DNA of 64,000 nt from Escherichia coli (GTDB taxonomy: Bacteria; Pseudomonadota; Gammaproteobacteria; Enterobacterales; Enterobacteriaceae). The notes under the pieces were generated by a model. The model had not been told where the DNA came from. It saw nothing but the letters and a program-made list of their open reading frames with translations, and searched no databases. Of this stretch, positions 61,952 to 61,965 are shown piece by piece (the first letter of the stretch is position 1; each line of letters opens with the position of its first letter). The stretch lies in NCBI RefSeq assembly GCF_003334385.1, contig NZ_QOWN01000019.1; one strand, written 5' to 3'. The translations under genes were made by a program, and so were the position numbers.

Positions 61952-61965
61952 TTGATTCCTATCAA
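61952..61965 (+). promoter_or_regulatory. Consensus FNR box TTGAT-N4-ATCAA upstream of yhjA
   Basis: TTGATTCCTATCAA centred ~114 bp upstream of yhjA ATG. Confidence 0.7.

Follow-up and report, generated by a model that had tools for sequence, protein, structure and literature searches.

The perfect FNR box upstream of ccp (yhjA) in the stretch of Escherichia coli DNA analysed here (64 kb, hereafter the window) is very probably one half of a two-input promoter, at which FNR acts as a class II activator from -40.5 and OxyR acts as a co-activator from about -74, so that synthesis of the peroxidase is limited to anoxic conditions in which H2O2 is present. Under anoxia, a [4Fe-4S]-FNR dimer would bind the palindrome approximately 40.5 bp 5' of the transcript start and, standing in for the missing -35 element, would recruit RNA polymerase (class II activation). 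A tetramer of oxidised OxyR would occupy a four-element site directly upstream, on the same helical face and 33.5 bp away, centre to centre. The two regulators would thereby form an AND gate, with the periplasmic tri-haem peroxidase made only without O2 and with H2O2, and Ccp would then allow the quinol-linked respiratory chain to use H2O2 as a terminal electron acceptor. The present analysis provides the elements with their geometry and conservation, while the FNR and OxyR dependence, the occupancy by FNR, and the role of the enzyme are taken from the literature; we infer the exact ccp start, how polymerase is contacted, and a requirement for helical phasing. The initial annotation of this DNA, which described FNR, overlooked OxyR as the co-activator and so captured only half of the switch.

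The box lies in a 403-bp intergenic region that separates treF (60020-61669, minus strand) from an open reading frame of 465 codons on the plus strand, downstream of which gadA starts at the window end. The promoter and gene comprise the following features:

61907-61943, no strand assigned: OxyR-type site, ATAG-N7-CTAT-N7-ATAG-N7-tCAT, 14 of 16 specified bases matching
61926-61930, no strand assigned: second TTGAT of the initial annotation, overlapping the third ATAG (61929-61932) of the OxyR-type site
61952-61965, no strand assigned: FNR binding site, perfect TTGAT-N4-ATCAA palindrome, sequence match 10/10
61987-61992, plus strand: -10 hexamer TATGAT (5/6), 21 nt 3' of the FNR box
61999-62000, plus strand: predicted ccp transcription start, G61999, 7 nt past the -10 hexamer, placed from the position of that hexamer only
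62073-63470, plus strand: ccp (yhjA), from the open reading frame and its translation; RefSeq product "cytochrome c peroxidase"
63478-63513, plus strand: intrinsic terminator after ccp, a 13-pair stem and a T run past the stop codon

The product is a membrane-anchored, tri-haem cytochrome c peroxidase of 465 aa, the translation of which contains three CXXCH motifs (CDYCH, CAHCH, and CATCH). It matched the Pfam models CCP_MauG (PF03150, 2.7e-53), an N-terminal Haem_bd (PF14376, 3e-29), and Cytochrom_C (3.3e-5); having both the CCP_MauG di-haem domain and CXXCH motifs, Ccp is a member of the bacterial cytochrome c peroxidase / MauG superfamily. A comparison of Ccp with NCBIfam returned only MauG/MbnH-type matches, all below the model cut-offs, which is expected of a related but distinct subfamily. 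Of 5426 complete E. coli genomes, 5423 contain the ccp promoter segment at 95-100% identity, and the adjoining reading frame in them is annotated "ccp: cytochrome c peroxidase". Because the terminator (stem and T run at 63478-63507) follows ccp, the transcription unit is monocistronic. An Rfam scan of 61500-63800 detected no known RNA family, since its sole match, to RsaJ, scored 20.9 bits where the gathering score is 100, and we rejected it as a chance match over the terminator region.

The initial annotation had reported an exact match to TTGAT-N4-ATCAA, and the sequence, TTGATTCCTATCAA at 61952-61965, proved correct in both letters and position. It is the sole perfect match within the 64-kb window, and its centre, 61958.5, lies 114.5 bp 5' of the ccp start codon. 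Across the window as a whole, a perfect box is only mildly unusual, as dinucleotide-shuffled windows contained 0.11 on average, with one or more in 10 of 100 shuffles. When the 403-bp treF-ccp intergenic region was shuffled with its composition preserved, a perfect box arose in 212 of 200,000 sequences (~1e-3), and a box followed 21-23 nt downstream by a -10-like hexamer arose in 17 of the same 200,000 (~1e-4).

The position of the box relative to the -10 hexamer points to activation of the class II type. The centre of the box is 28.5 nt 5' of TATGAT, and the -35 position of ccp (61964-61969) reads AAAAAG, matching TTGACA at one base of six; the ccp promoter thus has the poor or absent -35 hexamer by which class II FNR promoters are recognised. 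A two-hexamer sigma-70 scan of the intergenic region detected no promoter on the plus strand, which we read as a sign of an activator-dependent ccp promoter rather than of promoter absence. Since TATGAT follows the box by 21 nt and there is no -35 hexamer, the box would sit at about -40.5, a class II activator position. This location, counted from a predicted start that is set by the -10 hexamer, matches class II geometry, and the same start implies a leader of ~74 nt. Partridge et al. are said to have mapped the yhjA start in 2007 and to have called the promoter class II.

Directly upstream of the box, the OxyR-type site is centred at 61925, which corresponds to approximately -74 and is 33.5 bp 5' of the centre of the FNR box. 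The motif has a single match in the window, and none of 100 shuffles produced one. The E. coli OxyR consensus consists of four ATAG/CTAT elements at an 11-bp register (ATAGnt-N..-CTAT-N7-ATAGnt-N..-CTAT; PMC13050107), and 61907-61943 has this four-element arrangement; on the basis of the motif and the literature we assign it to OxyR as a putative site. The initial annotation had also listed a TTGAT at about 61926 as a second FNR half-site. The pentamer is indeed present at 61926-61930, but it forms part of the OxyR-type site rather than an FNR element. In TTGATAGTTTATAT the second arm matches at only one of five positions, which leaves this TTGAT without an ATCAA partner. Orthologous promoters carry TCGAT, ACGAT, TTAAT, TCAAT, or GCAAT at the same place, with TTGAT not kept outside Escherichia and some Citrobacter, while the overlapping ATAG is preserved across the orthologues (as ATCG in Providencia). 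A tandem FNR half-site was therefore rejected, given the missing partner arm, the unconserved pentamer, and its location inside the OxyR motif.

Conservation of the promoter was assessed in an orthologue set for which one genome per species was scanned, yielding 41 loci with Ccp relatives, about half of them from Citrobacter. An OxyR-type site, an FNR box, and a -10 hexamer occur together in Escherichia, Citrobacter, Pluralibacter, Providencia, Trabulsiella, Entomohabitans, Hafnia, Enterobacillus, Buttiauxella, Yersinia, and an enterobacterial MAG. In these orthologous modules the OxyR and FNR centres are 33.5 bp apart, with one exception, and the FNR box has 0-2 mismatches. All 33 distinct orthologous promoters have a -10-like hexamer with A2 and T6 located 21-23 nt after the box, which would place the box at -40.5 in Escherichia and Citrobacter and at -41.5 in most other genera. 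When information content was computed on sequences anchored at the box, it peaked at all four elements of the OxyR-type site, at both arms of the FNR box, and at the -10 hexamer, and was near zero in the flanks.

The one exception to the spacing is Providencia burhodogranariea (L017, ~1325-1400), in which the centres are 44.5 bp apart owing to a clean 11-bp insertion in a MAFFT alignment with loci L018, L019, L021, and L031. As 11 bp corresponds to one helical turn, this variant suggests that OxyR and FNR may need to occupy the same face of the helix. The divergent neighbour treF is found only in Escherichia and Citrobacter; in the other genera, the 1.5 kb upstream does not contain it. In those genera, the distance from the module to the ccp start is ~86-160 bp, except in P. 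heimbachae, where it is 227 bp. The module keeps its place 5' of ccp in at least eight genera in which treF is not adjacent, which indicates that it belongs to ccp.

Some lineages depart from this arrangement. Degenerate FNR boxes with two mismatches were seen in Pluralibacter (L016), Entomohabitans (L023), and Buttiauxella (L033), reading TTGATTAACGACAA, TTGACGGTGGTCAA, and TTGATAGCCCGCAA, respectively, and the OxyR-type site and the -10 hexamer are retained in all three despite the degenerate box. No recognisable module was found at a second Entomohabitans copy (L024) or at the betaproteobacterial Saezia locus (L026). In view of these degenerate boxes and missing modules, the strength of the oxygen input may differ between lineages.

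The box is also conserved within E. coli. Of 5426 complete genomes, 5393 carry an exact match of 28-30 nt to a 30-mer that contains the whole box (61938-61967), compared to only 3965 with an exact match to the 30-mer 61944-61973. The lower count is probably due to a G/A polymorphism at 61971, which lies outside the box, 6 nt 3' of it in the spacer to the -10 hexamer, and was present in two of three sampled variant strains; the sampled E. coli variants differ outside the FNR box. One natural disruption of the box was noted in E. coli fS54a (NZ_CM176577.1; L045, 2547-3755), where an IS5-like element is inserted inside it, giving TTGATTCCTAT / IS / CTATCAA; the insertion is annotated as ISKpn26 family with a frameshifted transposase. 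In strain TUM17668, the promoter query matched in two separate places, the better match running from about window position 61876, and this may represent another interruption.

Regulation of yhjA by both FNR and OxyR has been published (Partridge et al. 2007, Microbiology 2007;153:1499), according to the relevant passages of PMC10301912, PMC4207228, PMC2690998, and PMC13050107. FNR was found at yhjA and treF in vivo by ChIP-qPCR (PMC2690998). Under hypoxia, OxyR induces the periplasm-facing Ccp, upon which the respiratory chain uses H2O2 as a terminal oxidant, and a table in the same paper lists ccp among the OxyR-induced genes (PMC8115020). The suggestion of the initial annotation that the box confers anaerobic activation on yhjA is thus supported by the class II geometry, the cross-genus module, the published FNR/OxyR dependence, and ChIP-qPCR. 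Its further remark that FNR and a peroxidase make an unusual pairing did not hold up, since FNR activates Neisseria gonorrhoeae ccp ~24-fold (PMC1802743) and a rationale in H2O2 respiration has been published (PMC8115020).

A genome-wide study of FNR (Myers 2013, PMC3688515) lists the same box in its Table S6 as TTGATAGGAATCAA, a predicted FNR site at yhjA/treF with a PatSer score of 14.16, at position 3667319 of MG1655 (U00096.2). There it is classed as "silent": in anaerobic glucose minimal medium, no ChIP-seq peak of FNR was recorded at the box, which lies under both an extended 5.4-kb H-NS region (3661953-3667384, which includes the gadA locus) and an IHF region (3667035-3667586). A term search of the supplementary FNR-peak and WT-versus-fnr tables did not find yhjA. 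In Table S12, yhjA is ~2-fold higher anaerobically, the direction of the ratio being deduced from acnB and lpdA (>1). A Shigella FNR RNA-seq paper makes no mention of yhjA. A "silent" box fits a promoter that also needs OxyR and H2O2, but it shows occupancy by FNR to be conditional. The simplest way to reconcile the ChIP-seq with the ChIP-qPCR is that the Myers cultures contained no H2O2 and hence no active OxyR.

These occupancy data also bear on how much FNR contributes. If H-NS and IHF were the main proteins bound in vivo and FNR rarely gained access, FNR would have only a marginal part in control, and regulation would really lie with OxyR. The missing ChIP-seq peak and the H-NS and IHF regions covering 3667319 speak for this proposal, but the cultures concerned lacked H2O2, so the co-activator was off, and ChIP-qPCR in another study was positive (PMC2690998). 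Moreover, strong purifying selection on the box argues for its use, and dual dependence on FNR and OxyR is described in the literature; we consider a marginal role for FNR very unlikely. A related idea retains FNR as a full partner and gives OxyR a different task, with oxidised OxyR licensing the binding of FNR, either by countering silencing or as a cooperative partner, in a stereospecific AND gate. It draws on the 33.5-bp spacing, with its single +11 bp variant, and on the box being covered by H-NS and IHF and unoccupied without H2O2. We offer it tentatively, as a possibility that has less in its favour than against it.

An FNR box in a divergent intergenic region could also serve treF, either alone or besides ccp, in which case FNR would modulate trehalase expression. 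The two genes have this one intergenic region in common, treF is a "high-confidence" predicted FNR target that was positive by ChIP-qPCR (PMC2690998), and Myers Table S11 records for it a ~2-fold O2-dependent change in a delta-hns delta-stpA background. However, ChIP cannot tell treF and ccp apart across 403 bp of shared DNA, and 289 bp separate the treF start codon from the box centre, which is also ~266 bp away from the one promoter-like site detected on the treF strand; FNR is not known to activate or repress from such distances. The OxyR-FNR-(-10) module, in addition, holds its distance to ccp in the genera without an adjacent treF noted above, and a role at treF is therefore unlikely. That the palindrome arose by chance in AT-rich intergenic DNA and has no regulatory role would be compatible with the 10 of 100 whole-window shuffles containing a perfect box, and with several intragenic perfect boxes elsewhere in E. 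coli that are unbound, such as those in sucC, purU, and yehB (Myers Table S6). The local probability of ~1e-3 to 1e-4 speaks against chance, as do the published FNR dependence and the ChIP-qPCR, and conservation of the sequence and position of the box across genera with diverged flanks effectively refutes it; we give this reading almost no credence. CRP is a paralogue of FNR with a related operator, and the half-sites of the two proteins differ at few positions, which would leave room for the palindrome being a CRP site. Here, though, the half-sites are TTGAT/ATCAA and not GTGA/TCAC, the N4 spacing within a 14-mer is that of FNR, and the T at the discriminating position is kept in the orthologues, making a CRP site extremely improbable.

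A promoter with FNR and OxyR as its two inputs has close relatives among characterised systems. At nirB, narG, and ydhY, the place of the -35 hexamer is taken by a consensus FNR box near -41.5, with NarL/NarP binding further upstream, resulting in a two-signal gate. The ccp promoter similarly combines an FNR box with an upstream, signal-specific activator, although its co-activator is the peroxide sensor OxyR, of the LysR family, instead of a nitrate/nitrite response regulator. At katG, ahpC, and oxyS, the OxyR site abuts the -35 region. The ccp site shares with these promoters the four ATAG/CTAT elements at an 11-bp register, to which the oxidised OxyR tetramer binds there (PMC13050107), but it is shifted upstream, to approximately -92 to -56, a displacement that we attribute to FNR occupying the -41 position.

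The N. gonorrhoeae ccp gene is likewise a peroxidase gene activated by FNR under oxygen limitation, as documented with a lacZ fusion and by ChIP enrichment of its promoter. The gonococcal enzyme differs in being a di-haem lipoprotein that is repressed by nitrite, in contrast to the membrane-anchored, tri-haem, quinol-linked E. coli Ccp, and the accessible text of PMC1802743, from which these gonococcal data come, does not mention co-activation by OxyR.

The closest comparison is the E. coli K-12 yhjA promoter itself (Partridge, Poole and Green 2007), which is the same site at the same locus. The promoter segment of the window is 100% identical to E. coli chromosomes, and the element itself is no different. 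The FNR box at ccp is thus an already published oxygen-sensing switch, and its identification here is correct but ordinary, with no new biology. What this analysis adds is the conservation across genera, the 33.5-bp OxyR-FNR spacing, and the conservation throughout E. coli, of which the cross-genus conservation provides independent computational support for the published regulation. The ccp promoter offers a clean natural two-input gate (O2 absent and H2O2 present) controlling an enzyme that turns a toxic oxidant into a respiratory acceptor, and the +11 bp spacing, the degenerate boxes, and the box split by an IS5-like element are natural variants for dissecting co-activation by a LysR-type regulator and FNR.

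The leader of ccp contains three further features:

61999-62011, plus strand: inverted repeat GTCTC-gca-GAGAC, a candidate 5'-terminal hairpin that begins exactly at the predicted 5' end of the ccp mRNA
62050-62063, plus strand: small hairpin CTCAC-cacc-GTGAG, with its 3' arm overlapping the 5' end of the Shine-Dalgarno-like sequence
62061-62068, plus strand: Shine-Dalgarno-like GAGGGAAG, from sequence

Among 15 distinct Escherichia and Citrobacter sequences, 80% of cells in the 61999-62011 pairing were paired, compared to 28-46% when partners were slid, and three pairs were changed on both sides (UA to CG, CG to UA). Other, unrelated palindromes occur at the same place in Hafnia (GGCCAA/TTGGCC), the MAG (9 bp), Trabulsiella, Pluralibacter, and P. 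burhodogranariea; among the orthologous promoters compared, none was found in most Providencia or in Yersinia. The repeat is possibly a stabilising 5'-terminal stem-loop of the ccp mRNA, judging from its sequence and pairing pattern. If this is true, a covarying 5'-terminal hairpin would add a post-transcriptional layer, mRNA stability, to the control of ccp. The second stem, at 62050-62063, was also picked up by the terminator scan on the minus strand, and both E. albertii and an Escherichia sp. have kept this hairpin.
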